A stretch of 56,377 bases of DNA from a virus, in the IMG/VR virus record IMGVR_UViG_3300024254_000001, positions 1 through 56,377 of that record; one strand, 5' to 3'. A program made the position numbers and the translations under genes. Shown one piece after another: positions 3,182 through 28,316 of the stretch. Position 1 is the stretch's first letter. Every line of letters starts with the position of its first letter. The notes under the pieces are model-generated. The model made no database searches. It saw only the letters and a program-made list of their open reading frames with translations, and was not told the DNA's origin.

Positions 3182-3613
3182 TTATTGACGATGCTTATAC
3201 TCACGTTTCCAGTTCCTTTCACAAGTGCGGCAACATCGTTGTCCCGTGTCGCGGCGTCTTCTCAGATTGTCCCCAGAAAGAGGATGACCATGCTTGCAAT
3301 GGGATGGATTTTGCAAGGGCGAACGCCGCATGTTTTCCAAATGCGTCACCGCCTCTAAGTGCGATGGACGCACACAGCCTCGATTGCGGCAAATATGGTC
3401 CAATTCCAAACCATCAGGAACCGGCCCGTTGACTTGCTGCCAAGCCCAGCGATGCGCGTAAACATCTAAACCGTTTGCAAAGAACAGAGGATAACCACCG
3501 TCATTGTGTCCACCAGTCCAAAGCCAACAAGACGTTGACAAATTGCGAGAAACACGGCGCACGAAACGCTTGGCAGCAGACTTGAGTTTACGAGGCATAG
3601 ATAACCTCTCCAA
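3182..3613 (-). CDS. HNH homing endonuclease (HNH_3-like)
   Basis: CWLWTGGHNDGGYP...YAHRWAW...LELDHICRNRGCVRPSHLEAVTHLENM is a typical free-standing phage HNH pattern. The start could be ATG 3598. Confidence 0.9.
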   Translation of the reverse strand: MERLSMPRKLKSAAKRFVRRVSRNLSTSCWLWTGGHNDGGYPLFFANGLDVYAHRWAWQQVNGPVPDGLELDHICRNRGCVRPSHLEAVTHLENMRRSPLQNPSHCKHGHPLSGDNLRRRRDTGQRCCRTCERNWKREYKHRQ

Positions 3614-4838
3614 ACGGCGCAGTTGCGTTGCTTCCGTAACAAATCCAGATTACGGGGAACGGAGGCTCTTTGCTGGGGAACTCCCCCATTAAGTCAGTGA
3701 GGATCACCACCGCTTTGGGCTGAGGATTCAACGCCTCGCACCGTTTCAGCACGTCCACGAAGCTTGTCCCGCCGCCCCCGGCAATCTTCCGGTCAATCGC
3801 ATCGCCGACCGTGTATTCCTTTTCCCACAATACCCGGGTGTCGAACCCGATGTCCACCAGCTTGGCCGGGCGCATTTCGTCCAAACAATTCTGCTTCTCA
3901 ACGTGGAACTTGTTGACCAATTCGCCGAACGTTGACCCGGACCAATCCGAGCCGAACACGACCGGCCCCATCTTCTCAGAGCGCAGAGACGGCATGATGA
4001 ACCCGCACCCCTCGAATTCCATGGCCGATGTCAGAAAATCCCAATCATCGGCGCACTGCTCACGCAGCCAGGAACGAAGCACGTCCACCCAATCAATCTT
4101 GGGTTTCACTACGCTATCTACCAGACGCTCCAGACTGCCCGGCAAACTGCCTTGGCCGGATGCGAGCTTGGCCGATTGCAGGAGGGTAGCCGTCCAATCA
4201 TTCTGCAATTGCTTGGGGGATGGTGACCCCGGGGCACCGTTCGCGCCCTTTGGTTTCTCGATTTGGCCAAAAGAGGGCATTGACCCGGGTTTTCCCGTAC
4301 CGGATTGCGCACCATTTGCCCCAGGACGCGTTTTTCCGGACCCTCCGCTACCTCCAGACCCTCCCGGACTTCCACCCTTGCCTTGCGGCTGGCGCGAAGC
4401 GAGACGACCGTAAATCACCTCCTCTGCCAACCCTGAAAACTGGGGGTCAATGCAGTAATCGCTCTCCGGCTTTGGGAAGGGGAACGGATCAGCCAGCTTT
4501 TTGCCGGTCACAATCGCGGCAAACTCTTTCAGCATGAGATTGACCGCGTGATCCGTCGCCTGATTCCAGACGTCCCAATCGGCCCCAACCGGCGCTCTCC
4601 AGAGATGCCCCAGGAGACAATGGCAGACTTCGTGACACAGCACCGTGACCAACTCTTGATCGCTCAGCTTATCGCAGAACGCTGGAGAGAATTTGATCCG
4701 CTCTCCGTCAGTGCAAGCGGTATCGATCTTGTCATCGAATTCCACCGGCAGCTTGGCCACACCCGGCGCAAAGAATGGCACCGTGAACAGTACTCGCATC
4801 TGCGCTTTCTCAATGCGCTTCATTCGAGCAGCGCTCAC
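3588..4838 (-). CDS. DUF2201-type protein: N-terminal HExxH metallopeptidase-like domain, Gly/Ser/Pro linker, C-terminal VWA-like domain
   Basis: Contains HEVCHCLLGH and WNQATDHAVN. The C-terminal part has FGSDWSGST...GGGGTSF...VVILTDLMGE...PVIWI. Confidence 0.85.
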   Translation of the reverse strand: MSAARMKRIEKAQMRVLFTVPFFAPGVAKLPVEFDDKIDTACTDGERIKFSPAFCDKLSDQELVTVLCHEVCHCLLGHLWRAPVGADWDVWNQATDHAVNLMLKEFAAIVTGKKLADPFPFPKPESDYCIDPQFSGLAEEVIYGRLASRQPQGKGGSPGGSGGSGGSGKTRPGANGAQSGTGKPGSMPSFGQIEKPKGANGAPGSPSPKQLQNDWTATLLQSAKLASGQGSLPGSLERLVDSVVKPKIDWVDVLRSWLREQCADDWDFLTSAMEFEGCGFIMPSLRSEKMGPVVFGSDWSGSTFGELVNKFHVEKQNCLDEMRPAKLVDIGFDTRVLWEKEYTVGDAIDRKIAGGGGTSFVDVLKRCEALNPQPKAVVILTDLMGEFPSKEPPFPVIWICYGSNATAPFGEVIYAS

Positions 4839-5038
4839 CGCTTTGCCCTCCGGAGCAAGCGATTGTACTTGGCAGCAAACACTTTGAACGCAGGTCTGTT
4901 CATGAGCGATCTTGTTGCGTCTCCAAACTGAACCACATCGCGTGTCGCTGGACGCGCTCCGTTAGCCACATCTATCTTTTGAGCAGCACGCGCCCGAGCC
5001 TTCCAGTAACGGATTTTACGCTTAAACTTCTCAGTCAT
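4835..5038 (-). CDS. Small basic protein (67 aa)
   Basis: ATG 5038-5036 lies 4 nt after the leader motif. The stop overlaps the VWA start. The longer 4835..5284 version overlaps the ATPase gene and was rejected. Confidence 0.5.
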   Translation of the reverse strand: MTEKFKRKIRYWKARARAAQKIDVANGARPATRDVVQFGDATRSLMNRPAFKVFAAKYNRLLRRAKR

Positions 5039-5042
5039 AACT

Positions 5043-5056
5043 TTTCCTTTCAGTAT
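5043..5056 (-). promoter_or_regulatory. Early leader motif (ATACTGAAAGGAAA)
   Basis: 13/14 match to the consensus, upstream of ATG 5038. Confidence 0.55.
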
Positions 5057-5097
5057 TCCGATCATCACCACGATAACCAGAGCGACATCATCGCCGC

Positions 5098-5123
5098 CCA
5101 CTAATGAGCGCACGATGATGCTT
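5098..5123 (-). promoter_or_regulatory. Bipartite motif AAGCATCAT-N11-TAGTGG within an imperfect hairpin (5078-5129)
   Basis: Minus-sense CAGAGCAAGCATCATCGTGCGCTCATTAGTGGGCGGCGATGATGTCGCTCTG. It lies just after the ATPase stop codon. Confidence 0.4.
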
Positions 5124-5135
5124 GCTCTGACGACC

Positions 5136-6188
5136 TTATGACGCCGCCGACATGACATCTTTCCCGTCACTGGAACAACTCCAGGCGGTAAAATCCCGGC
5201 TGGCATGAATTGGCTTGTGACCTTTGGGCAGCGTACCAGCCTTTTGACGAGCCGACTCAGCTTTGACGGCATCGCGAATCGCATAGGCCCGGAACATTTG
5301 CGGCAACCGATTAAGGTACTTCACCGCCTGCCCGAATGTCCCCGAATCCATTCGAGACGCTAGCGCCATGCTCACCAGGAACCTTGCACTTGGGTTCTCC
5401 GGCACCGGACTACCCTCCGGATCAATCAGACACGCGTTGACGTCTGGAAGCTCACTTATCAGCGCTCGAAACGCCAAGTAAGCAGTTGCCCGGCCCTTGC
5501 CAACGCATCCAGCCAGCACCTCAGCGTCATCGAACCCGTCATTGATCCATTCCGCCACATATTCCCAACCCCGGGGACACGCGCCGTCAATCGTGATGGA
5601 CTTGCTAGGTTTCCAATCATGCAGCGCATCCGGGGAATTCCTCAGATACGCCAGCAAGTCACTTGGCCAGCCTTTGCTCAGCCCATACGTGATCACATCG
5701 TCAATGTGCGTCTCAATTTCCACAATCGTGTGGAACCGCGATTTAAGAGGCTCAATCAGCCCTTGCACGTCAGCCCCATGGCCGACATCGTTTGTGTCCG
5801 CCCCGAACACCACGAACTCCGGCAACACCCGATTATCGATCTGCCCGAACTGGACCAAATCCACAATCGCTTTCAGCGTCTCACCGTTCGCCATGCCCAG
5901 GTCACGGAAATGCAGCAGCGTTGGACGAGTCGCCCGAAACGCACGCGCCACGCCGTCAAACAGAGCGTGACTCGCATCGCCGCCCTCCTCAACCGGTGGA
6001 CGGGGATACCCGCCGATCTTCACCGGTGATTGTGTAGGGGAGCACACCCCAATGTAATCCATGCCGACCGCTTGAGCCGACCGCATGAATTCAAACGTTT
6101 TGCCGACTCCAGGCTTGCCCTTGGCCAGCACCCGTTTGTGTTTACGCAAGGCACGTTCATAAAACGCGCCGAATTCTCCAATTCTCAC
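5136..6188 (-). CDS. MoxR/AAA_5-like AAA+ ATPase
   Basis: Walker A GKPGVGKT. The start was moved to GTG 6188-6186, 4 nt after the leader motif; the ORF-track ATG at 6221 would include the motif itself. Confidence 0.85.
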   Translation of the reverse strand: MRIGEFGAFYERALRKHKRVLAKGKPGVGKTFEFMRSAQAVGMDYIGVCSPTQSPVKIGGYPRPPVEEGGDASHALFDGVARAFRATRPTLLHFRDLGMANGETLKAIVDLVQFGQIDNRVLPEFVVFGADTNDVGHGADVQGLIEPLKSRFHTIVEIETHIDDVITYGLSKGWPSDLLAYLRNSPDALHDWKPSKSITIDGACPRGWEYVAEWINDGFDDAEVLAGCVGKGRATAYLAFRALISELPDVNACLIDPEGSPVPENPSARFLVSMALASRMDSGTFGQAVKYLNRLPQMFRAYAIRDAVKAESARQKAGTLPKGHKPIHASRDFTAWSCSSDGKDVMSAAS

Positions 6189-6192
6189 TATG

Positions 6193-6206
6193 TTTCCTTT
6201 CAGTAA
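6193..6206 (-). promoter_or_regulatory. Early leader motif TTACTGAAAGGAAA
   Basis: Exact 14-mer upstream of GTG 6188. Confidence 0.6.
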
Positions 6207-6232
6207 CCACGTATCAGTCATTTGATACGCTT

Positions 6233-7774: not shown

Positions 7775-7953
7775 TGTCTGCGGACAGTCTGTGGACAGTT
7801 GGTGGGTTGAGGTTGTTGAGGTTTGCGGAATGAGGAGAAATCCCCCCTGTACCCCCTGTATGTGTCTGTGTAGCGGACGGGTGTGGACGAAAATGGACTA
7901 TCCACCGGATTTGTCCTTGCATGTCTCAGGTGGGTGGACAAGTCTTAGGACAA
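7775..7953. repeat. Iteron-like array of GGAC(A/G)(A/G) cores plus short direct repeats in a 290-bp non-coding gap
   Basis: GGAC cores lie at 7782, 7793, 7875, 7885, 7895, 7935 and 7948, with an inverted copy at 7912. CTGTC..GACAG is a palindrome at 7775-7787. TTGAGGTT occurs twice (7807-7825) and CTGTA three times (7847-7872). Confidence 0.5.
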
Positions 7954-8883
7954 ATGAAAGCTACTGTGATTCACCATTCTGCTGATTTCGATGGCCTGTT
8001 CTGCCGCGAGATTGCCGGCAAGTTTCTGCCCGATGCCGAGTTGATCGGGTGGGATTATGGGGACTCCAAAATCCCGGCACCGGAGGAGGGAACTATTTAC
8101 GTTTTGGACCTGTCTCCGGTGTGCCTTGGTCCATCCGCTCAGCCGGAAGCTATAACCGCGCCGGGCCGGATGCTGGATCGGGTTATATGGATTGACCATC
8201 ACAAGAGTGCCATTGATGAATACGACCGGACGATCCCCGGGTACCGCATTGACGGTGTGGCTGCATGTCGCCTCGCGTGGCAGTGGTTTTCGATTGGTGA
8301 GCACAACGCGCAGAATCAGACCAATGAACACCTGATAATTCCTTTGCCTGGAAAGCAGGACTTCGTTGACCGCAGTGTTTCCGAACCACTGGCTGTGCGT
8401 CTCGCCGGAGAGTACGATATTTGGGACAAGCGCGATCCGGATGCTGAGTTATTTCAGGCTGGATTAAGGAGCCGCGATCTTGCTGGTGAATGGGGTTGGT
8501 CAAAGCTTCTCGGAGACGATCCGCTTGAAGCTAAAATATGCGTCAACACCCTGCTTAAAAACGGAGAGGCAATTCAGTACGCGCAGACGCAACAGAACAA
8601 ATCCATCATCACTCACGCCGGTTTCACGGTTCAGTTTGAAGGGCTGACGTTCCTCGCCTGCAATCACGCTCGATTCAACTCGCACCTGTTCACGGCGGCG
8701 ATTAGACCGGAGCATGATGCGCTCATGGGCTTTTGTTGGGACGGGAAGCAATGGAAGTTTTCGATGTATCACGCGCCTGGAAAAGAGCAGTTCGACCTTT
8801 CTGCAATCGCCAAGGCGCGTGGCGGAGGCGGGCATAAGGGCGCGTGTGGATTCCAATGTGCGACATTGCCATTTTCGTTATGA
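7954..8883 (+). CDS. DHH/DHHA1 family phosphoesterase (NrnA/RecJ-like fold)
   Basis: Contains HHSADFDG (DxD), WIDHHKS (DHH) and GGGGHKGACGF (DHHA1 GGGH). The start was set at ATG 7954 (MKATVIHH). Confidence 0.9.
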   Translation: MKATVIHHSADFDGLFCREIAGKFLPDAELIGWDYGDSKIPAPEEGTIYVLDLSPVCLGPSAQPEAITAPGRMLDRVIWIDHHKSAIDEYDRTIPGYRIDGVAACRLAWQWFSIGEHNAQNQTNEHLIIPLPGKQDFVDRSVSEPLAVRLAGEYDIWDKRDPDAELFQAGLRSRDLAGEWGWSKLLGDDPLEAKICVNTLLKNGEAIQYAQTQQNKSIITHAGFTVQFEGLTFLACNHARFNSHLFTAAIRPEHDALMGFCWDGKQWKFSMYHAPGKEQFDLSAIAKARGGGGHKGACGFQCATLPFSL

Positions 8884-10622: not shown

Positions 10623-11279
10623 TCAAAATGCCTCATCCGGGTCCATCCAGATCAACCCGCCCAGACGGAAATATTGTTGCGGCTGGTTTTCCAGGGCGAA
10701 GTCCACCGGCAGATTGAAGTCTGCTCCCGGCAGGTAGTACGCGTTGAAAAGGTTTGTCCCGCTCCGATACACCGCCCAAAGCTGGCCTTGCGAAGAATCG
10801 TTGTCAAAGACACTCACGGTCAAAGTGGTTTGCCATTGGCCGGAGAGATCGGTTTTGCACTGCACGCACCATTTGGATTTGCTCGTGAATTCCCCGCCCA
10901 TCACCGGGTCAGGGAAATGGTAAGCCGTGATGTCGTAACGCGGTACGTCCTCGACGTCAATTTTGAGCAGAGAGCTTTGGGGCGCTTGCAACCAAAGATG
11001 ATGAGGCGGCGGATTGGTCACCGGTGGACGGCTGGGGGGCGGGGAGGGGGGTGAATTCGTTCCGCCGTTATTGGGTGGCGGTAACGAGGGCAGCTTTTTG
11101 CATATCTTGAGCAACCCCCATACGATGACGGCTCCAACCGCCAGGACGGCACACGCGAGGAAAAGGAGTTTCGGTTGAGGCGGCGGCGGGGGTGGCGGGT
11201 CTTTGGGCTGCGCGATGCACGGCGTGGCAAACGAGATTACGAGCAGGAGCGTGACGATGTATTTAATGAGCGTGTTCAT
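10623..11279 (-). CDS. Exported/membrane protein with proline-rich segments (218 aa)
   Basis: The start was set at MNTLIKYIVTLLLVISFATPCIAQ (signal-like). This is followed by PPPPPPP, a hydrophobic helix LLFLACAVLAVGAVIVWGLL, and PSPPPSRPPVTNPPP. Confidence 0.65.
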   Translation of the reverse strand: MNTLIKYIVTLLLVISFATPCIAQPKDPPPPPPPQPKLLFLACAVLAVGAVIVWGLLKICKKLPSLPPPNNGGTNSPPSPPPSRPPVTNPPPHHLWLQAPQSSLLKIDVEDVPRYDITAYHFPDPVMGGEFTSKSKWCVQCKTDLSGQWQTTLTVSVFDNDSSQGQLWAVYRSGTNLFNAYYLPGADFNLPVDFALENQPQQYFRLGGLIWMDPDEAF

Positions 11280-11458
11280 TTTTTGATGATTAAGGCTGCG
11301 GTTGCTACGGTGAAGGTGACTGCTCCAAGACATTGCAGAATGAAAAAGCTCGTTGAAAAAGGGACATCGGCACGGGCGGCGTAGAGGACAAGACCAGCGT
11401 AGAGAATCATGGCGGCGAGGAATAGAAGACGGCGACCGAGCGGACTCAATTGGTTCAT
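11276..11458 (-). CDS. Small membrane protein with two predicted TM segments (60 aa)
   Basis: The sequence is hydrophobic (LLFLAAMILYAGLVLYAA ... FFILQCLGAVTFTVATAALII). The stop overlaps the next ATG. Confidence 0.6.
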   Translation of the reverse strand: MNQLSPLGRRLLFLAAMILYAGLVLYAARADVPFSTSFFILQCLGAVTFTVATAALIIKK

Positions 11459-11754
11459 GCAAATCCTTTCATTGGGACGTTCTCCGAGATAACCGCGATG
11501 ATGTTGCGAACGTCAGTGATTACGATCTTGTCCGGGAATTCATGCGCGTGCTCCGCTCCGGCCCTGATGATGACGTGCGAACCGTTTTGCACATGACCCT
11601 CATTCTGCCTCCAGGCGAGTTCGCTCATGTTGATGACGAGCCATTGAGTACGATCGTCCATGCGGGCCATGTCGTAATGAATCCCCCCGTCAGAGCGATT
11701 GCGCAAAAGCGGCTGGAGCGCCACAAGGTTTTTGGTCAGGCGAAGTGTTCTCAC
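11455..11754 (-). CDS. Hypothetical protein (99 aa)
   Basis: ORF with 4-nt overlaps to both neighbours. Confidence 0.6.
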   Translation of the reverse strand: MRTLRLTKNLVALQPLLRNRSDGGIHYDMARMDDRTQWLVINMSELAWRQNEGHVQNGSHVIIRAGAEHAHEFPDKIVITDVRNIIAVISENVPMKGFA

Positions 11755-13628: not shown

Positions 13629-14351
13629 GTGCCTCGCTTAAAAAACAGACAATCCCAAGTGCCAAACGGGATGGCTTTTTTCATCCCTCACATAAAATGG
13701 TCACCGCCGCCGTACATGTCCATTGACCAGATCGCTCGAAACGCGATCAGTGTTTTGCAGGCTAATCCATCGGTGGCGGCAAAGCTTGGTTGGGATTTGT
13801 CCATCCCGGCGATGTCCGATCGCGTGGACGAATATAATGCCGCCCGTTGTCTTCAACTTGGTTATGCCCAATTCGTTTTGGCTGAGGGAGGTCAGCCCGA
13901 CATTCCCCCTTTTCTAGGGCACCCGAGCCAGAACCCCAACAACCCCAGCAATCTGCAAGCTGCTGCGGCAGGCGTTAAGAAAATCTGGCAGGGTATCCGC
14001 ACAATGAACGAGTGGGCCGATGCGGGATTCCCACACGTTGAGCCAGACAAATCCACTGCGAGAGCCGCTGTTTGCATCACGTGCCCGAAGAACACCGCTG
14101 GAGACTTTTCCAGTTGGTTCACCAAGCCAGCCGCCGAGGGAATACGCCGACTCACTGAGCGAGCCAAAGGGATAAACCTCACCACGCCGCACGATGAACA
14201 GTTGAACGTGTGCGACGTCTGCCTGTGCCCGATGAAACTCAAGGTCCACATTCCGATCGAAGTGCTCCGCAACGGAACCTCGAATGAAACGCTGGCCGAA
14301 CTGCGAGCCGTAACGGGTTGCTGGATTGTCAAAGAGATTGCTGGCTCGTGA
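13629..14351 (+). CDS. Hypothetical Cys-containing protein (first gene of the enzyme operon)
   Basis: Contains CITCPKN...CDVCLCP. The start may be ATG 13671. Confidence 0.7.
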   Translation: MPRLKNRQSQVPNGMAFFIPHIKWSPPPYMSIDQIARNAISVLQANPSVAAKLGWDLSIPAMSDRVDEYNAARCLQLGYAQFVLAEGGQPDIPPFLGHPSQNPNNPSNLQAAAAGVKKIWQGIRTMNEWADAGFPHVEPDKSTARAAVCITCPKNTAGDFSSWFTKPAAEGIRRLTERAKGINLTTPHDEQLNVCDVCLCPMKLKVHIPIEVLRNGTSNETLAELRAVTGCWIVKEIAGS

Positions 14352-14989
14352 AAGTCGCTTTGGTTTACGTATTTCCCACGGTCACCCCCGAGAAATACAT
14401 TCCTGCCGCTCGCAAGTTTGTGGAGAGCTACACGCGGCACCCTCCAGGCAGTCAGGATCACGACTTGCACGTAATCATCAATGGAGAAACCGCCGTGAAC
14501 ATCGAAAGGGTAAAGCGAATCTTTGACCCTCTCTCACCGAGTTTCAGTTATCACAACAATTGGGCCAAAGATTTGGGCGCGTTCATCGTGGCGGCAGAAT
14601 CGTTGCCGTGTGACTTGCTCGTGTGCGCTGGCTCTCACGTCAATTTCTGGGCATCGGGCTGGCTGGACGTGATGACGCGCTCGTACGCGGCAATCGGGCC
14701 AGCCGTTTACGGGGCATGGGCATTCCAGGAGCCGACCCCGCACATACGGACAACGCTTTTCTGGTGTCCTCCAGAATTGCTTGCGAGCTACCCCTATCTG
14801 AAATCAGACTCGGACAGATATTCATTTGAGCATGGACCAAACAGCATCGCGCTCTGGAGCCGGAAGAAAGGGTTTGAACCTTTTCAAGTCACTTGGCGCG
14901 GAGCTTACTCCATGAAACACTGGCACGCGATTGAGTTGCAGGAAGCTCTGGCCAGGGACCAGCATACCTTGAGAGATTTTGGACAATGA
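14348..14989 (+). CDS. Unknown enzyme-like protein, paralog A (possibly glycosyltransferase-like)
   Basis: GTGA overlap with the upstream stop. It aligns by eye along its whole length with 14986..15666 (VYVFP, D.GAF..AA, GWL, H.RTT.FWC.P.L, RY..EHGP). Confidence 0.8.
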   Translation: MKVALVYVFPTVTPEKYIPAARKFVESYTRHPPGSQDHDLHVIINGETAVNIERVKRIFDPLSPSFSYHNNWAKDLGAFIVAAESLPCDLLVCAGSHVNFWASGWLDVMTRSYAAIGPAVYGAWAFQEPTPHIRTTLFWCPPELLASYPYLKSDSDRYSFEHGPNSIALWSRKKGFEPFQVTWRGAYSMKHWHAIELQEALARDQHTLRDFGQ

Positions 14990-15666
14990 AAATCGCTGTT
15001 GTTTACGTGTTCCCGGAGAACGGTGGAAACGGTCACCTCGATCGTGCCCTGAAATTCGTCACGACCTATCAGGCCAACCCGCCCATGCACCTCCATGACA
15101 CAGTGGTTGTGTGCAACGGCGCTCGCGCAACTCCGGAGGCTAAATTCCTGTTTGAGTCCATGCCTGACTGTCAGTTCATCGAACACGATGATTCGGGTTT
15201 CGACATCGGCGCTTTTCAGTTGGCCGCTAAAACAGTGACGTGTGACATGATGGTGTTCTTTGGCGGCAACACGTACTTTCGCCGGGCCGGATGGCTCGCG
15301 AGAATGGCCAGCGTGTTCAGCACCTACGGGGATGCTCTTTACGGTTGCACTGGAAACCAGGGGGACACCCGTTTCAATGTGTTCCCTCACGTCAGGACAA
15401 CCGGTTTTTGGTGCAATCCAAAGCTGGTCAATGACCATCCGCTACGGGTCACCGATAACAGCCAGCGATACCCCTACGAGCACGGTCCCGAGGGTCTGAG
15501 CACCTGGACGTTGCGGACAGGAAAGCGAGTGTGGGTTGTGGGCTGGAGCGACATTAAGCCGCTGCATGACTGTGATTCTATGCCGGAGGGGTTTCACAAA
15601 GGGGTTCAGGCAAATATCCTTGTTGGCGACCGCTTAACCTGTGCGCCGTACTATCCTCACGAGTAA
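14986..15666 (+). CDS. Unknown enzyme-like protein, paralog B
   Basis: ATGA overlap. Paralogous to 14348..14989. Confidence 0.8.
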   Translation: MKIAVVYVFPENGGNGHLDRALKFVTTYQANPPMHLHDTVVVCNGARATPEAKFLFESMPDCQFIEHDDSGFDIGAFQLAAKTVTCDMMVFFGGNTYFRRAGWLARMASVFSTYGDALYGCTGNQGDTRFNVFPHVRTTGFWCNPKLVNDHPLRVTDNSQRYPYEHGPEGLSTWTLRTGKRVWVVGWSDIKPLHDCDSMPEGFHKGVQANILVGDRLTCAPYYPHE

Positions 15667-16344
15667 ATGCCTCAGCCGATTGCCGTTTTCTACCATTGCC
15701 TCTTTCAGATTGGCGATGAAATCCTGCCCAGTGCTCTGGCGGTTGTTCAGGAGCAAATGACTCAGCTTAAAGAAAGCGGGCTTGAAGATGCGGCTGCGGA
15801 AATTCATTGCGGTGTGAATGGTGGAAAGGAGAGCGAGGTTTACGGTCAGGCCATGCTGCCAGCCAAGGCGCACATCACGTATCACGGGCTGAAATCGCGC
15901 TCTGAAAATCTCACGCTTGTTCTCATGGAAAACTGGGTAAAGACTCACCCGGGATGGTCGGTCTTGTATTTTCACGCCAAAGGCAGCACTCACGCCATGG
16001 GCAGCGAGTACGGCACTTTTGCCGGGAACTGGCGCAGGCGGATGATGCACTACTGCGTGAAGCATTGGCGCTACTGCGTAAAAGACCTTGAGACTTATGA
16101 AGCCGTAGGATGCCACTGGCTGACTGGCCAAGGATGGGATCGCAGCCAGCATTACTTTGCCGGTACCTTTTTCTGGGTGCGCTCTGAATTCTGGGCGACC
16201 ATCCCGAGCATCTTCACCCGCCAACGGATAAAAGACTCCGGTATCGAATCGCTGGAGAGCCGCTATGAGGCAGAGGTTATCATGGGGAACGGTCCACGCC
16301 TGCCTTTCATCAAAAACTATTACGCCGGTCCAATCGGGACGTGA
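15667..16344 (+). CDS. Unknown enzyme-like protein (YFHAKG motif), possibly glycosyltransferase-like
   Basis: Starts directly after the upstream TAA. Contains VLYFHAKGSTH...NWRRRMMHYCVKHW. The function is a guess. Confidence 0.75.
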   Translation: MPQPIAVFYHCLFQIGDEILPSALAVVQEQMTQLKESGLEDAAAEIHCGVNGGKESEVYGQAMLPAKAHITYHGLKSRSENLTLVLMENWVKTHPGWSVLYFHAKGSTHAMGSEYGTFAGNWRRRMMHYCVKHWRYCVKDLETYEAVGCHWLTGQGWDRSQHYFAGTFFWVRSEFWATIPSIFTRQRIKDSGIESLESRYEAEVIMGNGPRLPFIKNYYAGPIGT

Positions 16345-16356
16345 TACTCTCTCACC

Positions 16357-17433
16357 GTGGCAATGACACCCGAGATGCAGAAGGCTTACGAGGATTCAGC
16401 GATTCCATTCTACGCTGGCGGCGGGGCAATCAGCGTTGAGCAGACCCGGCTAAAATCTTGGCGTTACTTCCTGGAGATAAATTCCGTTTGCAACCTGCAT
16501 TGCCCGACCTGTACCAAGGGCAACCAAAAAGGATACGACCATTTGACCGGCGTGATGGACCCCGAGTTAATGGAAAAGATTCTGGACAAGATTGCCTCCG
16601 AGAATCCTAACGCCATTGTTTTCACCTACGGCAACTCCGAGCCATTCCTGCATCCGCGTTTGCCGGAGTGCATTGCCGCTATCAAACGGCGTGGATTGCA
16701 CCCGGAGCTTTCCACCAACCTCAACGTGATCAACCGGGTGGATGAGCTTCTGGCAGCACAGCCAGACATGATAATCATCAGCCTCTCCGGGTTCACTCAG
16801 GAGGTTTACGTGAAAGGGCACGCGGGCGGGAACATTGAGAGAGTCAAAGCTAACATGCAGACCATTGCTGAGGCTAACGCCAGGGCCAACCCGAAGGTGA
16901 ACATTTCGGTCAATTACCACTTTTACAATGACAACGAGCACGAAGTTGCTCCGATGAAAGAATATGCCGAAGCCTTGGGATTGAATTTTTTCACCTCCGT
17001 TGCGCGAGCCATTTCGATGGAGAACGCGATCCAGTATTGCCGGTCCAAAGACCCGGAGGCTACCCCGTTCGAGGTTCAGGACGGTAGGCCAGACTGGAAC
17101 ACTGCGCTTCCTCCCGTTGGAGATACTTACGTTAAGACGATGGAGCGGCTGAGGATTCCGCCGACCAACGCCCGGGAAATGTACCAGCACCATCCGCGCT
17201 CCGAAGTGTGCCCGGTTGGCGCGGGTGGAATGTTCACTTTCATCCGGCATGACGGCAAAACCTCAATGTGCGCTTGCGTGGCAGATCGCCGGATAACAGT
17301 GGGTGACTATTTGGACACGACTCCGGACCAAATGATTGAGCAACGCACCGGTCACGCCATTTGCAAACAATGTCTTCACTACCGGACCAATCTTTACTTT
17401 CACATTGTTGACCGGGACAAATGGACGCCATGA
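16357..17433 (+). CDS. Radical SAM enzyme with a C-terminal Cys-rich (SPASM/twitch-like) region
   Basis: CNLHCPTC is the CX3CX2C motif. GNSEPFLHP follows. The C-terminus has CPVGAGG...CACVADR...CKQC. Confidence 0.9.
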   Translation: MAMTPEMQKAYEDSAIPFYAGGGAISVEQTRLKSWRYFLEINSVCNLHCPTCTKGNQKGYDHLTGVMDPELMEKILDKIASENPNAIVFTYGNSEPFLHPRLPECIAAIKRRGLHPELSTNLNVINRVDELLAAQPDMIIISLSGFTQEVYVKGHAGGNIERVKANMQTIAEANARANPKVNISVNYHFYNDNEHEVAPMKEYAEALGLNFFTSVARAISMENAIQYCRSKDPEATPFEVQDGRPDWNTALPPVGDTYVKTMERLRIPPTNAREMYQHHPRSEVCPVGAGGMFTFIRHDGKTSMCACVADRRITVGDYLDTTPDQMIEQRTGHAICKQCLHYRTNLYFHIVDRDKWTP

Positions 17434-18008
17434 CCCTGGACGAAATTGCGATCAAACATCAGACTGACAAGGCCAGCCAGTTCACGCGCACCTACGCGTT
17501 GCCTCACGACTACTGCCGCCACCTGGAACGATTCTTTGAGCCGATGCGTTACAAGGCAATCAAGCTGCTTGAAATCGGAATTGGCGGCGGCGAATCCGCC
17601 CGCACATGGCTGGAGTATTTTCCCAAGGCTCTAGTCCACGGAGTTGATTTGGTTCACGACACCAATCCTTTCAACACCCCACGCTCAAAAGACATTCCGC
17701 GCTACGTATTCAATCAGGGCGACCAGACCAGCGAAGTGTTTTGGAAGTGCTTCGTGGCCGATTACGGCAGTCAGTGGGACATCATCATTGACGATGGTTC
17801 GCACATCTCCGGCGACATCATTAAGACTTTCGGATACCTCTGGCCCCACGTGATTCCTGGTGGCATCTACGAGATCGAAGACCTGAACGTAGCTCCGGAA
17901 GCCAGGGCTTGGCTCCTTGAATTTGTGGTTGGGATAAACGCCGGTACCAGCGACGTGGATTCAATCTACTTTTCCAAAGAGCTTGCAGTTATCAGAAAAA
18001 AGGGGTAG
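17430..18008 (+). CDS. Class I SAM-dependent methyltransferase
   Basis: Contains HQTDKA, LLEIGIGGGESARTW (motif I) and IIIDDGSH. ATGA overlap with the radical SAM stop; an alternative ATG is at 17421. Confidence 0.85.
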   Translation: MTLDEIAIKHQTDKASQFTRTYALPHDYCRHLERFFEPMRYKAIKLLEIGIGGGESARTWLEYFPKALVHGVDLVHDTNPFNTPRSKDIPRYVFNQGDQTSEVFWKCFVADYGSQWDIIIDDGSHISGDIIKTFGYLWPHVIPGGIYEIEDLNVAPEARAWLLEFVVGINAGTSDVDSIYFSKELAVIRKKG

Positions 18009-18072: not shown

Positions 18073-18744
18073 ATGCCTGATAAAGCTTCTAAACCACCCG
18101 GAAAATGTTCTCAAGATTTAACTGGCCATAAATTCGGTCGGCTCACCGTTATTGCCTTTGCTGGCCGCAAGGTTGGACCCCCGCGTAACAGACCATTGCT
18201 TTGGCTTTGCGAGTGCGAATGCACCAACAAGATAACCACGACTACCGGATGCCTGAAATCTGGAAACACGCTTTCGTGCGGCTGTTATCAAAAAGAACAG
18301 GCGACCAAGACCGCCACCATTCATGGCGGTCACGATGATCCTCTCTATTCAGTTTGGATTCACATGAGAGAAAGATGCCAAAATCCAAATCTAGAATGCT
18401 ATGATAGGTACGGAGGGAGGGGAATTCATGTTTGCGAAGAATGGAAAGACTTCTCTGTTTTTAGATCGGACATGGGGCCAAGCTATAAGGAAGGACTGAC
18501 CTTGGATCGGCGGAACAATCTGGAAGGCTATTCCAAATCGAATTGCCGGTGGGCTACAACCGCAGAGCAAAACCGAAACCGGAGAGACAATAAATTTTTA
18601 GAATTCGGTGACGAAAACCTGTGCATGGCAGCTTGGGACGAACGCCTTGGATTTGCAAAAGGAACCGTGTCGCGTCGGATTGGGCGACACTGGACCATTG
18701 AGAAAGCATTGACAACGCCACTTCGAAAGCGTAATCCGGCTTGA
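18073..18744 (+). CDS. Free-standing homing-endonuclease-like DNA-binding protein
   Basis: YSVWIHMRERCQNPNLECYDRYGGRGIHVCEEWKDFSVFRSDMGP...LDRRNNLEGYSKSNCRWATTAEQNRN is a family commonly annotated as HNH/AP2-type in phages. A second copy lies at 54513..54965. Confidence 0.8.
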   Translation: MPDKASKPPGKCSQDLTGHKFGRLTVIAFAGRKVGPPRNRPLLWLCECECTNKITTTTGCLKSGNTLSCGCYQKEQATKTATIHGGHDDPLYSVWIHMRERCQNPNLECYDRYGGRGIHVCEEWKDFSVFRSDMGPSYKEGLTLDRRNNLEGYSKSNCRWATTAEQNRNRRDNKFLEFGDENLCMAAWDERLGFAKGTVSRRIGRHWTIEKALTTPLRKRNPA

Positions 18745-21038: not shown

Positions 21039-21098
21039 ATGCCGGAGGGCTGGGCATGGGACGAAGACGATGACCCTCCGGAGGATTGCGACGAATGA
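21039..21098 (+). CDS. Micro-ORF, 19 aa, acidic (MPEGWAWDEDDDPPEDCDE)
   Basis: The ATG directly follows the portal TAA. Its TGA overlaps the ATP-grasp ATG (ATGA). It could be spurious. Confidence 0.3.
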   Translation: MPEGWAWDEDDDPPEDCDE

Positions 21099-22384
21099 AA
21101 CAAATCGGCGATGTAACATGCGCGATCATAGACTCCGGACTGTTCCTGCCAATGGCTCACCGGATGGCCGAGGAGGCTAAGCGGGTAATCTTCTGTCAGC
21201 CTTGCGAAAAAACCCCATGCACGGTCAAGAGCGCGTGCATTGGTGACGGTTTCCCCGGCATTGAGACAGTCCGAGACTTCTGGCCCTTGATTGATGAGAT
21301 CGATCTGTTCTGCTTCCCCGATGTCCACCATTCCGGCTTGCAGCTTTACCTGGAGTCCATCGGCAAAGCCGTTTGGGGATGCCGCAGTGCCGATGTCCTG
21401 GAGTTGAACCGGACCCGGATGATGAAGATGTTGGCAGAGCTTGGGCTGGACGTACCCGAGTACAAAACGGTTGTTGGACTCGATGAGCTTCGCCGGGTGT
21501 TGCAGGATGAGTCTGACAAGTACGTGAAAATCTCCCGCTACCGGGGCGACATGGAAACCTTTCACTGGCGGGACATGGCGCATGACGAAGGATGGCTTGA
21601 TTGGCTGGCGGTGAATTTCGGACCTTTGAAAAAACACGTCCGTTTCCTGGTGTTCGATTCCATTTTGACGGATTTGGAAATTGGAGGAGACACCTACTGC
21701 ATTGACGGCAAGTGGCCCGGCGTAATGTTGAACGGGATCGAGAGCAAGGATAAGAGCTACTTTGCAGCCGTCACGGATCGGATCGACGCCCCAGACCAAA
21801 CGCTGCACGTCATGGAGGCTTTCTCTCCTTTCCTCGCCAAAAGCCGGTACCGGCAATTTTGGTCAATGGAGGTTAGGGTGAAAGATGACAAATCGTACTT
21901 CATTGACGCGACCGTGAGGGGCGGATTGCCGTCCTCAGCTTCGCAGCAACTTCTCTGGGCGAACTACCCTCAAATCGTCTGGGCTGGAGCCAACGGTGAA
22001 TTGGTGGAACCGGAGCCGCTTGCCAAGTTCTCAATCGAAACCATGGTGAGCACCAAGAGCGAAAAGGATTCATGGGACACGGTAGAGCTTCCCGAGGAAC
22101 TAACCCGCAATTGCCGATTCTCCAACTGCGCCCTTGTGGATGGTAGGTACTGCTTCCCTCCCGACGAATTAACGAGCGGTGACCTAGGTTGGCTCTGTGC
22201 CACCGGGGACACCCCGCAGGAGGCTCTGAACGAAATCAAGCGGCTCGCGGATATGCTTCCCGATGGCCTGGACGCCAAGGTTGAGGATTTGTCCGGTGTG
22301 CTCAAAGAGATTGACACCGCCGCCAAGGAAGGCATAAGAATTACTGACAGTCCGGTGCCAGAGCCGGAAGCTGCGATACAATGA
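21095..22384 (+). CDS. ATP-grasp fold protein
   Basis: Layout by eye: Rossmann-like N-terminus, ELNRTRMMKMLAELGLDVPEY, KYVKISRYRGDMETF, LVFDSILTDLEIGGDTYCIDG, FWSMEVRVKDDKSYFIDATVRGGLP. Confidence 0.6.
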   Translation: MKQIGDVTCAIIDSGLFLPMAHRMAEEAKRVIFCQPCEKTPCTVKSACIGDGFPGIETVRDFWPLIDEIDLFCFPDVHHSGLQLYLESIGKAVWGCRSADVLELNRTRMMKMLAELGLDVPEYKTVVGLDELRRVLQDESDKYVKISRYRGDMETFHWRDMAHDEGWLDWLAVNFGPLKKHVRFLVFDSILTDLEIGGDTYCIDGKWPGVMLNGIESKDKSYFAAVTDRIDAPDQTLHVMEAFSPFLAKSRYRQFWSMEVRVKDDKSYFIDATVRGGLPSSASQQLLWANYPQIVWAGANGELVEPEPLAKFSIETMVSTKSEKDSWDTVELPEELTRNCRFSNCALVDGRYCFPPDELTSGDLGWLCATGDTPQEALNEIKRLADMLPDGLDAKVEDLSGVLKEIDTAAKEGIRITDSPVPEPEAAIQ

Positions 22385-24540: not shown

Positions 24541-26073
24541 ATGTCATGCCCTACGTCAGGAATTATCCAGGCTTGTGATTTCATCCAGGCGATGGTGGAT
24601 CAAACCCCCAAGTTCGATGAAATGATCATGGAAGACATTCGGCCAAACGATGGCTGGCTGTACAACGTGTCCACCGGGAGCACACCCAACGGAACCCCCG
24701 TTGAGATCACCCAAGACCGCTTTCGCTCTGTCTGGCCCAACACCACGAAGCAATGGACCCGAAAGGTTGCCAATGGTCCGGGTTGCAGTGGTAACCCTTG
24801 CGACTTCACCGAGCATCAGATCGGCTGGGGCGCGGATCGGTTGACCTACTTCGCCGAGCAGCAGTCCTGGGCGACCCCGCTCCTGTGCTATGACCAAGAC
24901 ATGCACATTACGCACGCCGAACAGCACATCTCGCAAATCATATCCGAGATTCTGAAACCGGCGACTACGGCAATCAGCAGCAATTTTCTGCGCAAACGCC
25001 ACCTGTTTTGGTCCAACGTCAAAGGCGTGGCCAATGCCAACTTTGGCGTGCCCGCAACGGACGGTGTTTTCACCTTCACCTGGACTTTGGGCGGCGTGAA
25101 CGGCGACGAAGAAATTTTCTTCGACACCTCTGCCAATCCCTCCCGGATTTTCAAGCTTGTGCCGCAGATGCTCCAGAAGCGTTTCAACCCGCTCATGCTG
25201 CGCGGTTACGCTGGCAAAAATCCGTTCAAGGATACCTCCCCGTTCATTGAGTTTGTGTCCGACATGGACACGACCTGGGAGCTTGACCACCTGGGCGGAC
25301 AGACCGGCGTTGGCGGGGCGAACAACCCCAACGTGCTGGGCAACTGGCGTTTCACGCAGTTCGATGACAGCACCAAATACTGGCGCTATGGTTTCTCCGG
25401 CCAGATCGGAAACTTCATGGTGCGAGTTGACCCAATGGGACTCCGGTTCAACTTCGTCACCGACCTGGGGGCGGCGGCGGCTCCGAACCGTTTCCGTTAT
25501 CAAGTGGTGTTGCCGTATAAGAACAGCGTCACCACCGGCGCAGGCGGCTCCGCAGGCATCGGGTCGGACTACAACCCCGACTTTGACCGGGCGCAGTTCC
25601 GACTGTCCCAAATCCACCACAAGAAAGGCATGGAATTGCTTGTGCCCGAAGGTGGACCGCTCAACCCGGAATTGCCTTTCGGTCACCGGGACTTTGGCGG
25701 CAAGTGGCAGTTTGTGATGGACAACCTTGGCGCAGACCAAAGCGGCAACGTGATCCAGAACAAACGCCGGAACAAAGGTCAGTTCATCGCGGACTTCAAT
25801 TATTATGTCCGCCCGATGCACTACGAATTCCTGGAGGTGTATTTCCACCGGGGAGAACAGTTCTGCATCCCGGAAATCTCGACCTGTAACACTGCGCCAG
25901 GATACCCGGCTCAGAATTACGAATCCGGATTGCCCTCTTGCCCGCCTCCAGCGGCGTACAACCCGCTCTACACTGGAGCAGCCTTTGGTATGGGTGTGCC
26001 GACCGGCTCACAGGATGGCCCAGTGCCTCAGCCGCCTACGGCAATGCCGCAGACGCCCGCAAGCGACCTGTAA
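24541..26073 (+). CDS. Major capsid protein (by position)
   Basis: 510-aa ORF after the scaffold gene, with its own promoter-like site and long leader. The antisense 430-aa ORF is treated as a shadow. Confidence 0.55.
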   Translation: MSCPTSGIIQACDFIQAMVDQTPKFDEMIMEDIRPNDGWLYNVSTGSTPNGTPVEITQDRFRSVWPNTTKQWTRKVANGPGCSGNPCDFTEHQIGWGADRLTYFAEQQSWATPLLCYDQDMHITHAEQHISQIISEILKPATTAISSNFLRKRHLFWSNVKGVANANFGVPATDGVFTFTWTLGGVNGDEEIFFDTSANPSRIFKLVPQMLQKRFNPLMLRGYAGKNPFKDTSPFIEFVSDMDTTWELDHLGGQTGVGGANNPNVLGNWRFTQFDDSTKYWRYGFSGQIGNFMVRVDPMGLRFNFVTDLGAAAAPNRFRYQVVLPYKNSVTTGAGGSAGIGSDYNPDFDRAQFRLSQIHHKKGMELLVPEGGPLNPELPFGHRDFGGKWQFVMDNLGADQSGNVIQNKRRNKGQFIADFNYYVRPMHYEFLEVYFHRGEQFCIPEISTCNTAPGYPAQNYESGLPSCPPPAAYNPLYTGAAFGMGVPTGSQDGPVPQPPTAMPQTPASDL

Positions 26074-26474: not shown

Positions 26475-26822
26475 GTGCTCACATGCGACCCATCCGCACT
26501 TGCCGACCTTGCCAAGTGTCAATTATCTTGCGTGAGAGGGGCGAGCGTTTCGGTTCGCTCGTTCCTCTTATGCAGTTACGCTAGTTCTATGGCTGTAAAT
26601 TGTGACCCATCATCGCTCGCCAATGCGGCGACATGCTTCGATTCCTGCATTCCGCCAGGGCATCAGTTGGCAGTGCAAACCTATTTGCTTGCTGTGATAG
26701 CAGGAGGAAGCATGGACCCGTCCACGCTGGCCAATAACGCTCGATGCTTCCTTGACTGCATTCCCCAGGGAGAGCAATTGGCAGTTCAGAATTATTTGCT
26801 CTGCCAGATAGTGAACAAGTGA
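26475..26822 (+). CDS. Cys-repeat protein (three CDPSxLA...C...C...YLL(C) units)
   Basis: Internal repeats of about 37-40 aa are read directly. It ends at a TGA in frame with the next ORF. Confidence 0.7.
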   Translation: MLTCDPSALADLAKCQLSCVRGASVSVRSFLLCSYASSMAVNCDPSSLANAATCFDSCIPPGHQLAVQTYLLAVIAGGSMDPSTLANNARCFLDCIPQGEQLAVQNYLLCQIVNK

Positions 26823-26825
26823 CCT

Positions 26826-28316
26826 GTGGCAATTTCATGCGATCCATCTGTCCTTGCCCAAGCTGCCCGGTGCTTCAATGATTGCCACCATTCGCACGCG
26901 CTTGCGCAATCGGTAAAGACTTACCTCCTTTGTCAGTACTCCAATTCGGCACCGTCCTCAGTTGCCGCGCCGTCAAACCCGGATATTGACGATGCGAGTA
27001 TTTCGACGTCAGTGACGTTTACCTGGACCAACAACGCCTCGCCTGCCGCCACCACTAACGAGATTTGGTCACAGAAGAATGGGGGAGCTTACGCCTTGCT
27101 TGGGACCGTGGCGGGCAACGTTGCGACGTTCACGGATAATGCTCCCGGGCTGGTCAATGGAGACGAGCGGTTTTACAAAGTGCGAGCGTGCAATGGGACA
27201 ACCTGCTCCGCATTCACCGACCCTCGATCAGTTGCGCTCAGGCTAGGAACTCTTGGGATCGCCAATTACAACTCTCCATTCCTGGTGATTCATTTCGGGA
27301 ATTTCGACACCGCATCGGCTGGAGTTGTCCTGACAGTCAATTTTGCATTACTAAGGCGGGTCAAGAGCGCAGGGCTGGATTTGGGGTCGGTGTTTTTGGA
27401 CAACGAAGCGAACCTTGTATCTGTTTCGATGCCCTCTTTACAAACTGTACCGGACAGTTTCCTTGGGTTCACTTGTCCCAAATTCACAACTTTGGTTTTG
27501 ACGTCCCTGCAAACAATCGGGAACAGCTTTCAATTTGGGGGAGCAAACATCACTGGAAACTTTGCCTTACCGGCACTCACTAGTGTTGTGGGCCTCTTTG
27601 ATGTGGACAGTAACCCATTGCTTACCGGGTTGTCTGTACCGGTACTTTCAACTGTTGGAGCAGACTGCTTTGTACACCTAACAGCCATTTCCAATGCTAG
27701 TTTTCCGTCACTGCAAAGCGTGGGAGGCAATTTCCGGCTTGGGGAAAACGTCAACCTATTGACCGTTTCGTGTCCGGCTCTCACAACGATTGGAGGCGGA
27801 CTGAGTACTTTCAATAGCGCTGGGATGACCTCCATGAGTTTTCCAGTGTTGGCAAACATGGGAGGGGCCTCAATTTCCTGTTCCGGATGCACTGCTTTGC
27901 TTGCCGCAAATTTCCCGGCGCTGATAGCAGTTGGGGCTGGCATTGGAATGGACGTGGATTTTTCCAACTGCACTGCGCTTGCGTCAATCAGCTTCCCTAA
28001 CATGTTTTTGATTGGGGATTTCGCTTTCAGCGGGTGCGCAGTGTTGACATCGGTGACCTTGACCAACGCAACGTTTTCGGATGGTGGATTCATTCTAGAT
28101 TTCTTTGGCGATGCGGTTGCAGCCGGAAACTCGCTGGCTGGCACTGGCATAAACGGAATTCTTCACCGGGGGGCTGTTTCTCCAGGCCCGTTGACATCGG
28201 ACAATTTCAACTTGAATGGCGGCACCAACGCCGGAGCAGCGGCTTTGTCGGCTCAAGGCACTGCCGATGCAGCGTTTTTGACTGGAAACGGAAACACGGT
28301 CACGTTGAATCCATGA
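26826..28316 (+). CDS. Fibre/receptor-binding candidate: fourth Cys-repeat unit + FN3-like domain + BspA-type leucine-rich repeats
   Basis: ISCDPSVLAQAARCFNDC...YLLC is the fourth repeat unit. VTFTWTNNASPAATTNEIWSQKNGGAYALLGTV...RFYKVRACNG looks FN3-like. The LRR_5-like repeats include NFSNCTALASISFPNMFLIGDFAFSGCAVLTSVTL. Confidence 0.8.
   Translation: MAISCDPSVLAQAARCFNDCHHSHALAQSVKTYLLCQYSNSAPSSVAAPSNPDIDDASISTSVTFTWTNNASPAATTNEIWSQKNGGAYALLGTVAGNVATFTDNAPGLVNGDERFYKVRACNGTTCSAFTDPRSVALRLGTLGIANYNSPFLVIHFGNFDTASAGVVLTVNFALLRRVKSAGLDLGSVFLDNEANLVSVSMPSLQTVPDSFLGFTCPKFTTLVLTSLQTIGNSFQFGGANITGNFALPALTSVVGLFDVDSNPLLTGLSVPVLSTVGADCFVHLTAISNASFPSLQSVGGNFRLGENVNLLTVSCPALTTIGGGLSTFNSAGMTSMSFPVLANMGGASISCSGCTALLAANFPALIAVGAGIGMDVDFSNCTALASISFPNMFLIGDFAFSGCAVLTSVTLTNATFSDGGFILDFFGDAVAAGNSLAGTGINGILHRGAVSPGPLTSDNFNLNGGTNAGAAALSAQGTADAAFLTGNGNTVTLNP

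Follow-up and report, generated by a model that had tools for sequence, protein, structure and literature searches.

Glycans made by viruses themselves are documented for few systems, namely mycobacteriophages, chloroviruses and some giant viruses. Virion glycosylation operons have reportedly been described by Freeman et al. in 2023 for mycobacteriophages of Cluster O (Corndog-type) and Cluster F (Che8-type). According to two papers that summarise this work, three tandem glycosyltransferases and an O-methyltransferase modify the capsid and the tail tube in Cluster O mycobacteriophages (PMC11600133), and mycobacteriophage glycans sit on the C-terminal ends of the subunits of capsid and tail tube (PMC12619734). 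In the chlorovirus PBCV-1, the protein A064R carries a beta-L-rhamnosyltransferase GT-A domain, an alpha-L-rhamnosyltransferase as domain 2 and a 2-O-methyltransferase domain, and together with A061L it builds the end of the capsid glycan in the cytoplasm (PMC9614988). Here we analysed positions 1 to 56,377 of the IMG/VR virus record IMGVR_UViG_3300024254_000001, a stretch of 56,377 nucleotides (nt) that we call the window, and within it six consecutive plus-strand genes at 13629-18008, labelled A to F. We find that B to F very likely constitute a glycan-building cassette. For the system as a whole we put forward, tentatively and at slightly less than an even chance, a cytoplasmic cassette in which B to F would make an O-methylated 6-deoxyhexose-type glycan on the virion proteins.

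The six genes are laid out as follows, with products in amino acids (aa) and open reading frames abbreviated as ORFs:

A, 13629-14351, plus strand, ORF of 240 aa.
B, 14348-14989, plus strand, 213 aa counted from GTG; a TTG at 14318 is open too.
C, 14986-15666, plus strand, ORF of 226 aa.
D, 15667-16344, plus strand, ORF of 225 aa.
E, 16357-17433, plus strand, ORF of 358 aa; 356 aa with the ATG at 16363, the start chosen by gene callers.
F, 17430 or 17421 to 18008, plus strand, 192 or 195 aa, 17421 being an alternative start.

Direct reading of the sequence bears out the six plus-strand ORFs and the short junctions that an earlier, sequence-only reading of the window had listed: A and B overlap by GTGA, B and C as well as E and F by ATGA, TAA is followed by ATG with no spacer between C and D, and a gap of 12-18 nt separates D from E. 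The motifs quoted at that stage are likewise all present and kept across homologues (YFHAKG..H in D, CNLHCPTC and CPVG/CAC/CKQC in E, LEIGIGGG and IIIDDGSH in F). The window covers nearly all of a metagenomic contig of 56,471 bp. The base composition of the cassette is like that of the remainder of the window, and each of the six genes has tens to hundreds of homologues in metagenomes. Judged from these numbers and from a gene order repeated among relatives, which together go beyond chance, all six ORFs are genuine genes. Against Pfam, A-F gave Radical_SAM in E, sub-threshold matches to Methyltransf_24 in F and to RgpF in C, and nothing else; the scan of PHROGs added a generic radical S-adenosylmethionine (SAM) family for E and a methyltransferase family for F, and the NCBIfam scan matched only the core of E. 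No transmembrane-like segment was found in A-F (19-residue hydropathy windows; maximum 1.75, in a core strand of B). A GtrABC-type conversion module (membrane flippase GtrA, GtrB and GtrC) was considered and rejected, as none of A-F has a transmembrane-like window and membrane proteins are missing. No tRNA genes were found in the window.

B and C are paralogous, as first proposed, sharing 34-36% identity (tblastn E-value ~3e-32) in an alignment over the full length and the motifs VYVFP, DxGAF, GWL, HxRTTxFWCxP and RYxxEHGP. The AlphaFold2 model of C has a predicted local distance difference test (pLDDT) score of 95 and a predicted template modelling (TM) score of 0.92, and in a Foldseek search against the PDB its top 50 matches are GT-A enzymes (E-values down to 1.6e-7; TM-scores 0.45-0.60), among them SpsA (E-value 1.6e-7), the fucosyltransferase WrtF, the xyloside xylosyltransferase XXYLT1, EXTL2 and RmlT. 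The model thereby identifies B and C as GT-A-fold glycosyltransferases with a single Rossmann-like nucleotide-sugar-binding domain, the fold being assigned to B because it is homologous to the modelled C over its whole length. In the B/C alignment D73, within GxDIG, is invariant and an HDD/HDN/RDN stretch is variable, and the strand that normally has DXD as its end reads MMVFFGGN. The cluster around P0117, a distant cellular relative of C, comprises Wzt, RmlA-, RmlB-, RmlC- and RmlD-type genes, Methyltransf_14, Methyltransf_24, GT2 and GT4, and by its gene content is of the deoxythymidine-diphosphate (dTDP)-6-deoxyhexose O-antigen type.

For D, precomputed Pfam matches to PF27674 (DUF8361) exist that are marked weak, and the same family is assigned to most D homologues; a search against a local copy of Pfam gave no match, and the D profile yielded only chance spectrin matches in the PDB. 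Sequence profiles of D were thus uninformative and its predicted structure was needed to place it. The AlphaFold2 model (pLDDT 92.8) is about equally distant, at a TM-score of ~0.45, from the cytidylyltransferases IspD and TarI and from the GT-A enzymes GtrB and ArnC in the PDB, and on this model the fold of D is of the nucleotide-diphospho-sugar-transferase type. Against the predicted viral structures of BFVD we observe closer matches (TM-scores 0.72-0.79), namely a Synechococcus phage S-SRM01 protein, proteins of 638 aa and 445 aa, and a Klosneuvirus glycosyltransferase. The 638-aa protein, M1IF74, matches D with a TM-score of 0.77 and 19% identity, the search not reporting which domain was matched. 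Domain 2 of A064R (residues 213-438) is an inverting, cation-independent alpha-L-rhamnosyltransferase that escaped recognition by sequence search and founded a new glycosyltransferase family (PMC9614988). The structural comparison suggests that D is probably a glycosyltransferase of this type, and D is tentatively likened to domain 2 because the solved structure of domain 1 is not among its top 50 PDB matches. The D homologue in S-SRM01 lies among sulfotransferase, glycosyltransferase and nucleoside-diphosphate (NDP)-sugar epimerase genes and adjoins tail-fibre genes. D had been described as unrelated to B and C, and profile-profile comparison with the B/C family indeed gives a probability of 2.6%; its predicted nucleotide-sugar-transferase fold nevertheless makes it akin to them in kind. 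A literature search on DUF8361 returned nothing relevant.

The proposal that F is a class I SAM methyltransferase held and could be narrowed. In a phmmer search of the PDB, F matches 3ssm (E-value 1.1e-19), which we take to be MycE, a 6-deoxyallose 2-O-methyltransferase, with F residues 16-153 aligned to residues 190-326 of the 419-residue chain, and 8ia9, the demethylmacrocin O-methyltransferase TylE (E-value 4e-13). The F motifs LEIGIGG, IIIDDGSH and YEIED align with LEIGVGG, VIDDGSH and YVIED of 3ssm, covering the SAM and acidic metal-site motifs. F lacks the N-terminal auxiliary domain of MycE/TylE (~180 residues) and comprises the catalytic domain only; it also matches Pfam Methyltransf_24 below threshold (E-value 7e-4) and the methyltransferase family phrog_21658 (E-value 2e-23). 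By these alignments, F is a class I SAM-dependent sugar O-methyltransferase of the MycE/TylE type. Its closest cultured-phage relatives are Mycobacterium prophage methyltransferases (41-42% identity), whose genes have a glycosyltransferase gene as neighbour and HNH, terminase and portal genes downstream.

E carries the radical SAM motif CNLHCPTC (CX3CX2C), whose cysteines C45, C49 and C52 are invariant in 17 sequences, and scores 42.3 bits against Pfam Radical_SAM (PF04055; cutoff 29.5). Only five C-terminal cysteines are kept (C285, C305, C307, C336 and C339), and their spacing, C285-X14-G-X4-C305-x-C307 ... C336-X2-C339, fits the CX9-15GX4C pattern of Twitch/SPASM domains. No match to SPASM (PF13186) appeared at an E-value of 0.1 or below, and the seven-cysteine motif for two auxiliary clusters is not present, so that of the earlier label "radical SAM/SPASM-like" the radical SAM part stands and the SPASM part does not. 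We read E as having one putative Twitch-like auxiliary cluster and no full SPASM domain. NCBIfam matches (for example W_rSAM_matur, E-value 2e-20, and StsB, E-value 5e-10) are confined to core residues ~37-210 and lie far under the family cutoffs. The best PDB profile match is DesII, an enzyme acting on a TDP-deoxysugar and thus E's best solved relative by profile (E-value 1.7e-6, radical SAM core only; 31.7 bits against a cutoff of 450 for the NCBIfam DesII family). Upon scanning 185,579 reference genomes for E, we find cellular relatives and no prophage copy. Around the closest (L040), which shares 46% identity and comes from a bacterial metagenome-assembled genome (MAG), lie a pair of GT2 genes together with genes for an NTP_transferase (sugar-phosphate nucleotidyltransferase), a 4,6-dehydratase, an epimerase, a Methyltransf_14 C-methyltransferase and a further methyltransferase; the E homologue there lies directly 3' of, and overlaps, an ORF with a C-like domain. 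A second relative (L041, 32% identity), in a Thermodesulfobacteriota MAG, sits between an NTP_transferase nucleotidyltransferase and a 4,6-dehydratase, near Wzm/Wzt, a sulfotransferase, a Methyltransf_14-type C-methyltransferase and a second radical SAM/SPASM protein. From these neighbourhoods, E is predicted to act on a nucleotide-sugar or on an already transferred sugar. Relatives in Thiorhodococcus (26% identity; peptidase and ATP-grasp neighbours) were judged too distant to inform function.

Upon comparing conservation across the related loci, the median identity to the window is 67% for E, 53% for F, 51% for D, 47% for C, 40% for a 765-aa protein encoded downstream and 33% for A, and in each of the 14 loci having both, conservation is higher for E than for the 765-aa protein. 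E is the slowest-evolving gene of the module; together with its place beside nucleotide-sugar genes in bacteria, this suggests that it probably carries out an undescribed step of deoxysugar chemistry. The radical SAM clade of E has no characterised member, and a literature search combining radical SAM, Twitch and nucleotide-sugar found nothing relevant. A queuosine or 7-deazaguanine role was considered and set aside: the sole match of this kind is to a QueE-like PHROG (E-value 0.005), and partner genes are missing, in agreement with the earlier remark that the usual 7-deazaguanine partners are absent, as neither QueC, QueD, FolE or DpdA nor a hydroxymethylase was found in the ORFs scanned. Such gene-family negatives for the window cover the scanned ORFs, a set that leaves out several small ORFs and some ORFs of the structural region.

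The first gene, A, belongs to a large standalone family (971 representative clusters) with six invariant cysteines (C149, C152, C195, C198, C200 and C231 in an alignment of 25 homologues), a conserved N-terminal domain and a variable, proline-rich linker. Pfam (also on 25 members), PHROG, NCBIfam and the PDB (also by profile) gave no match for A, and exhaustive searching with HMMER added no annotation. Among the examined loci it stands at the 5' end of the module in the window's phage lineage only, and it is absent from other lineages with C, D or E (L003, L017, L035, L038 and L040). Its membership of the cassette is uncertain: it may encode a partner peculiar to this lineage, or be a conserved gene with no connection to the others.

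For each of C, D and E, metagenomes yield between 100 and over 600 homologues, many of them on contigs of 50-58 kilobases (kb), and we fetched and compared 33 related viral loci. The gene order A, B/C, D, E, F is repeated in ~30 independent viral contigs from uncultured phages of ~50-58 kb, and in 21 loci the module lies just upstream of the gene for the 765-aa protein. Copy number varies: modules hold between one and three genes of the B/C type and one or two of the D type, and about one half of them lack F. The relatives carry accessory genes for an NDP-hexose C-methyltransferase (Methyltransf_14; in many loci), an RmlD-like reductase, a TylF O-methyltransferase, a DUF5672 protein and a GT2/GT9 fusion. 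Other phage types (L003, L017, L035 and L038) have C, D and/or E without A: in L017, C and E lie with a C-methyltransferase between a Mu-type portal gene and a terminase gene, and in L035 the gene next to the module encodes a homologue of the 510-aa protein of the window. Among cultured phages, DNA and protein searches with the region, C, the terminase and the 765-aa protein gave no match, and B, C and D have no detectable sequence match there save a few distant ones for D. Judged from these loci, the cassette is no simple moron: it is conserved as a module at a fixed position throughout an uncultured phage lineage. Of the alternative that the earlier reading had named, a known host O-antigen or capsule pathway carried as a simple moron, the sugar-pathway part thus comes close to what we find and the simple moron does not.

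Additionally, genes for DNA methyltransferases of C5 and N4/N6 types lie within or near the module in L013 (7656-8915), L027 (6517-7353 and 8021-9106) and L038 (14626-16065); in the relatives, DNA methyltransferases and HNH endonucleases occupy variable, insert-like positions. On the 137-kb contig L038, which carries C, D and E, a second E-like gene at 4557-5387 is divergent (29% identity) and has in its vicinity genes for a TylF methyltransferase, an RmlD-like reductase and a tyrosine-phosphatase-like protein.

For the working of the cassette we propose that B, C and D, with their nucleotide-sugar-transferase fold, would add sugars in sequence to an acceptor, using 6-deoxyhexose nucleotides of the rhamnose type from the host pool. 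A rhamnose-type 6-deoxyhexose is suggested because RmlC/D-type enzymes, C-methyltransferases and TylF/MycE-type methyltransferases keep recurring alongside, and since neither a nucleotidyltransferase nor a 4,6-dehydratase was found among the window ORFs scanned, host nucleotide-sugars would be drawn on. E would tailor one donor sugar or a transferred sugar through hydrogen-atom abstraction, the most plausible results being dehydrogenation to a keto sugar, epimerisation or deoxygenation, by comparison with DesII and with BtrN, a radical SAM sugar dehydrogenase with a Twitch domain. F would O-methylate a sugar hydroxyl and so cap the chain. The acceptor would be the phage's own virion proteins, as in mycobacteriophage capsid and tail-tube glycosylation and in the PBCV-1 A064R system. 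We infer the identity of the donor, the reaction of E, the order of the steps and the acceptor alike. A virion acceptor, one of the substrates that the sequence-only reading had listed, is favoured because the proteins are soluble, because the cassette leads, without change of strand, into the morphogenesis block, a position kept across the lineage, because it adjoins portal, terminase, capsid-candidate or tail-fibre genes in unrelated phages (L017, L035 and S-SRM01), and because the nearest described systems are virion glycosylation and the phage relatives of F adjoin a glycosyltransferase. A further-reaching version, which we regard as doubtful, holds that the E clade is a novel Twitch-type radical SAM group performing a new radical tailoring of a 6-deoxyhexose (nucleotide-linked or transferred), that the unusual sugar would be displayed on virions as a self-made glycan coat in a widespread uncultured phage lineage, and that A may be a new acceptor-recognition or iron-sulfur partner.

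Several findings weigh against a virion-glycosylating cassette. By sequence, none of B, C and D reaches a curated glycosyltransferase family; for B and C no PHROG or NCBIfam match was found, the match of C to Pfam RgpF is below cutoff (E-value 0.039; 13 bits, cutoff 25), and a canonical DXD after the fourth strand is not evident in the alignment of either protein. The PDB neighbours of D include cytidylyltransferases as close as glycosyltransferases, so that D could activate a sugar instead of transferring one, and M1IF74, which shares with PBCV-1 A064R its length of 638 aa, is no more than a possible orthologue of that protein. E is missing from about one third of the related modules and hence is not essential to the cassette. 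Some relatives have DNA methyltransferases inside the module. The genes had earlier been placed between an XRE switch and the head genes; an XRE-type regulator does lie a short distance upstream, whereas the "head", "portal" and "capsid" labels downstream are positional only. The virion target itself rests on gene position and analogy, and the O-antigen-cluster relatives of the enzyme families fit remodelling of the host envelope equally well.

A role in remodelling the envelope of the host in the course of infection, with an O-antigen, capsule or S-layer glycan as target, seems to us unlikely on balance; the cassette would then put methylated deoxysugars onto lipid-linked intermediates at the inner membrane face and thereby block superinfection or change a receptor. 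Relatives of the C, E and F families and of the C-methyltransferase do occur inside Wzm/Wzt-type O-antigen clusters, transferase copy number and accessory genes vary among close relatives as in serotype-determining loci, and the XRE-type regulator is just upstream; however, the cassette lacks membrane proteins, a flippase, a polymerase and an initiating transferase, A-F contain no transmembrane segment, and the genes point the same way as the morphogenesis genes instead of adjoining an integrase or attachment site. The scanned ORFs of the window yielded no integrase and the 185,579 reference genomes no integrated copy, which argues against a role in lysogenic conversion. An improbable alternative is that a soluble glycoside or nucleotide-sugar is made or altered without a macromolecular acceptor, draining or rewiring the host sugar-nucleotide pool or yielding a glycosylated small molecule. 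It would agree with the solved relatives of F, which act on macrolide-bound sugars, and with the resemblance of D to nucleotidyltransferases as much as to glycosyltransferases in the PDB, but three transferase-fold proteins of variable copy number suggest an oligosaccharide, aglycone-biosynthesis genes are absent from the window and its relatives, and adjacency to morphogenesis genes is consistent across unrelated phages.

Glycosylation of phage DNA bases as an anti-restriction hypermodification, with E and F tailoring the attached sugar, is in our estimate slightly less probable still. Modification of DNA is the classical role of phage-encoded glycosyltransferases, and DNA glycans of diverse kinds are known (cited in PMC12619734). 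The C5 and N4/N6 DNA methyltransferase genes lie inside the module in L013 and L027 and nearby in L038, but at variable, insert-like sites; furthermore, no dCMP/dUMP (deoxycytidine or deoxyuridine monophosphate) hydroxymethylase, DNA polymerase, DpdA or queuosine-pathway gene was found in the scanned window ORFs. Without a hydroxymethylase no hydroxymethyl acceptor base is evident, and the relatives are O-antigen and macrolide-sugar enzymes, not T4-type GT-B DNA glucosyltransferases. Very improbable, finally, is that E is a peptide-modifying maturase of the sactipeptide/SPASM type acting on a phage protein such as the cysteine-rich A, with the transferases decorating the product. The NCBIfam maturase-family matches and the position of A at the operon head speak for it; those matches are restricted to the radical SAM core, though, and Pfam SPASM is unmatched, with five C-terminal cysteines only. 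In addition, the cluster motif of E begins at residue 45 without an N-terminal extension of the RiPP (ribosomally synthesised and post-translationally modified peptide) recognition element (RRE) type, A and E occur independently of each other, and the cellular relatives of E have sugar, not peptide, neighbours. A RiPP maturase role was rejected on the missing RRE domain and on these sugar-gene neighbours; a precursor peptide, reported earlier as not visible, was not found here either.

Turning to the surroundings of the cassette, it lies on the same strand as the downstream block with near-continuous coding, and no strong-stem, terminator-like site was found on the plus strand between 13.8 and 17.9 kb. 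We propose from this arrangement that it is expressed within a long rightward operon running into the morphogenesis genes. The conserved 765-aa protein opens the morphogenesis block downstream, and neither it nor the 510-aa protein could be identified by family or structure searches. HNH endonuclease genes lie at 18073-18744 and 54513-54965 (phrog_374/phrog_3377; E-values 6e-66 and 3.5e-45), the former separating the cassette from the 765-aa gene; HNH homologues occur at differing sites inside the module in L011 and L021-L023, like mobile homing endonucleases. A 432-aa cysteine-rich protein encoded at 21086-22384 directly follows the 765-aa protein in 11 related loci (38-71% identity) and has no Pfam or PHROG match. 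The 510-aa protein (24541-26073) is a capsid candidate by position only; the last ~70 residues (~25860-26070) form a proline/threonine/serine-rich tail with 21% proline against 6% elsewhere, and the protein's GVPTGSQDGP motif is common to the L036 and L037 homologues. By analogy with the C-terminal glycosylation of mycobacteriophage capsids, one may speculate that this tail is a glycan acceptor.

Other features of the window stand apart from the cassette. The ORFs at 26475-26822 and 26826-28316 share a ~35-residue cysteine-containing repeat (CDPSxLAxxAxCFxxCIPxGxxLAVxxYLLC), of which the first contains three copies and the second one, at its start; the second also has a weak tail-fibre-J-like match. 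The large terminase (29544-31460; phrog_2, E-value 1.3e-9) is on the minus strand amid an otherwise plus-strand morphogenesis block, and one ORF of 2163 aa at 39670-46161, within a stretch of strongly positive AT skew, probably encodes a giant tail or fibre protein. On the minus strand at 3588-6221 we observe a gene pair for a DUF2201 metallopeptidase/VWA-like protein (Pfam E-value 8e-34) and an ATPase (phrog_1297, E-value 6e-38), near a DHH phosphoesterase-like gene at 7921-8883. The minus-strand ORF at 10623-11462 has a product with hydrophobic stretches and extended runs of proline (PPPPPPPQP, PPSPPPSRPPVTNPPP), which may be an early-region membrane or surface protein.

The cassette, present on hundreds of metagenomic contigs, suggests that virus-made glycans are common in a large, entirely uncultured phage lineage. 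Glycans on virions influence recognition by antibodies and possibly the host range. It offers a testable function for four poorly annotated families (B/C, DUF8361, the E clade and A), and the relation of D to A064R, if true, would connect the glycosylation enzymes of bacteriophages and chloroviruses. The sequence-only reading had seen here a candidate for an undescribed modification system. That view did not hold as a whole: the structure search it had suggested for the unassigned enzymes placed the models of C and D in nucleotide-sugar-transferase folds, B, C and D have predicted glycosyltransferase-type folds, F is of the MycE/TylE type, and E, C and F have relatives in O-antigen and NDP-deoxysugar clusters.

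Compared with the known systems, the cassette resembles the mycobacteriophage operons in combining tandem soluble glycosyltransferases with an O-methyltransferase in a tailed phage (here B, C, D and F), and differs from them in the radical SAM enzyme E and the six-cysteine protein A, and in being known from its genes alone. With PBCV-1 A064R it shares, as candidates by fold or sequence, a GT-A transferase, a second transferase invisible to sequence search and a deoxysugar O-methyltransferase, encoded here by separate genes and there fused into one protein; the chlorovirus system has no radical SAM enzyme corresponding to E. E in turn is like DesII and BtrN in its CX3CX2C motif, its single C-terminal auxiliary cysteine set and its relatives with NDP-sugar neighbours, whereas the similarity to DesII is confined to the radical SAM core. 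Bacterial ABC-transporter-dependent O-antigen clusters for methylated or C-methylated 6-deoxyhexoses (RmlA-D type, with Methyltransf_14) contain relatives of C, E and F, as well as of the RmlD-like reductase and the C-methyltransferase that related phages add to the module, but the phage cassette lacks Wzm/Wzt, an initiating transferase, a nucleotidyltransferase and a dehydratase, and it is embedded in a late-type phage operon. Overall, what is new is the radical SAM clade of E, a DUF8361/A064R-like transferase in tailed phages, the family of A, and a lineage without a cultured relative, while in kind the cassette would, by analogy, work like virus-encoded glycosylation and bacterial deoxysugar O-antigen tailoring.

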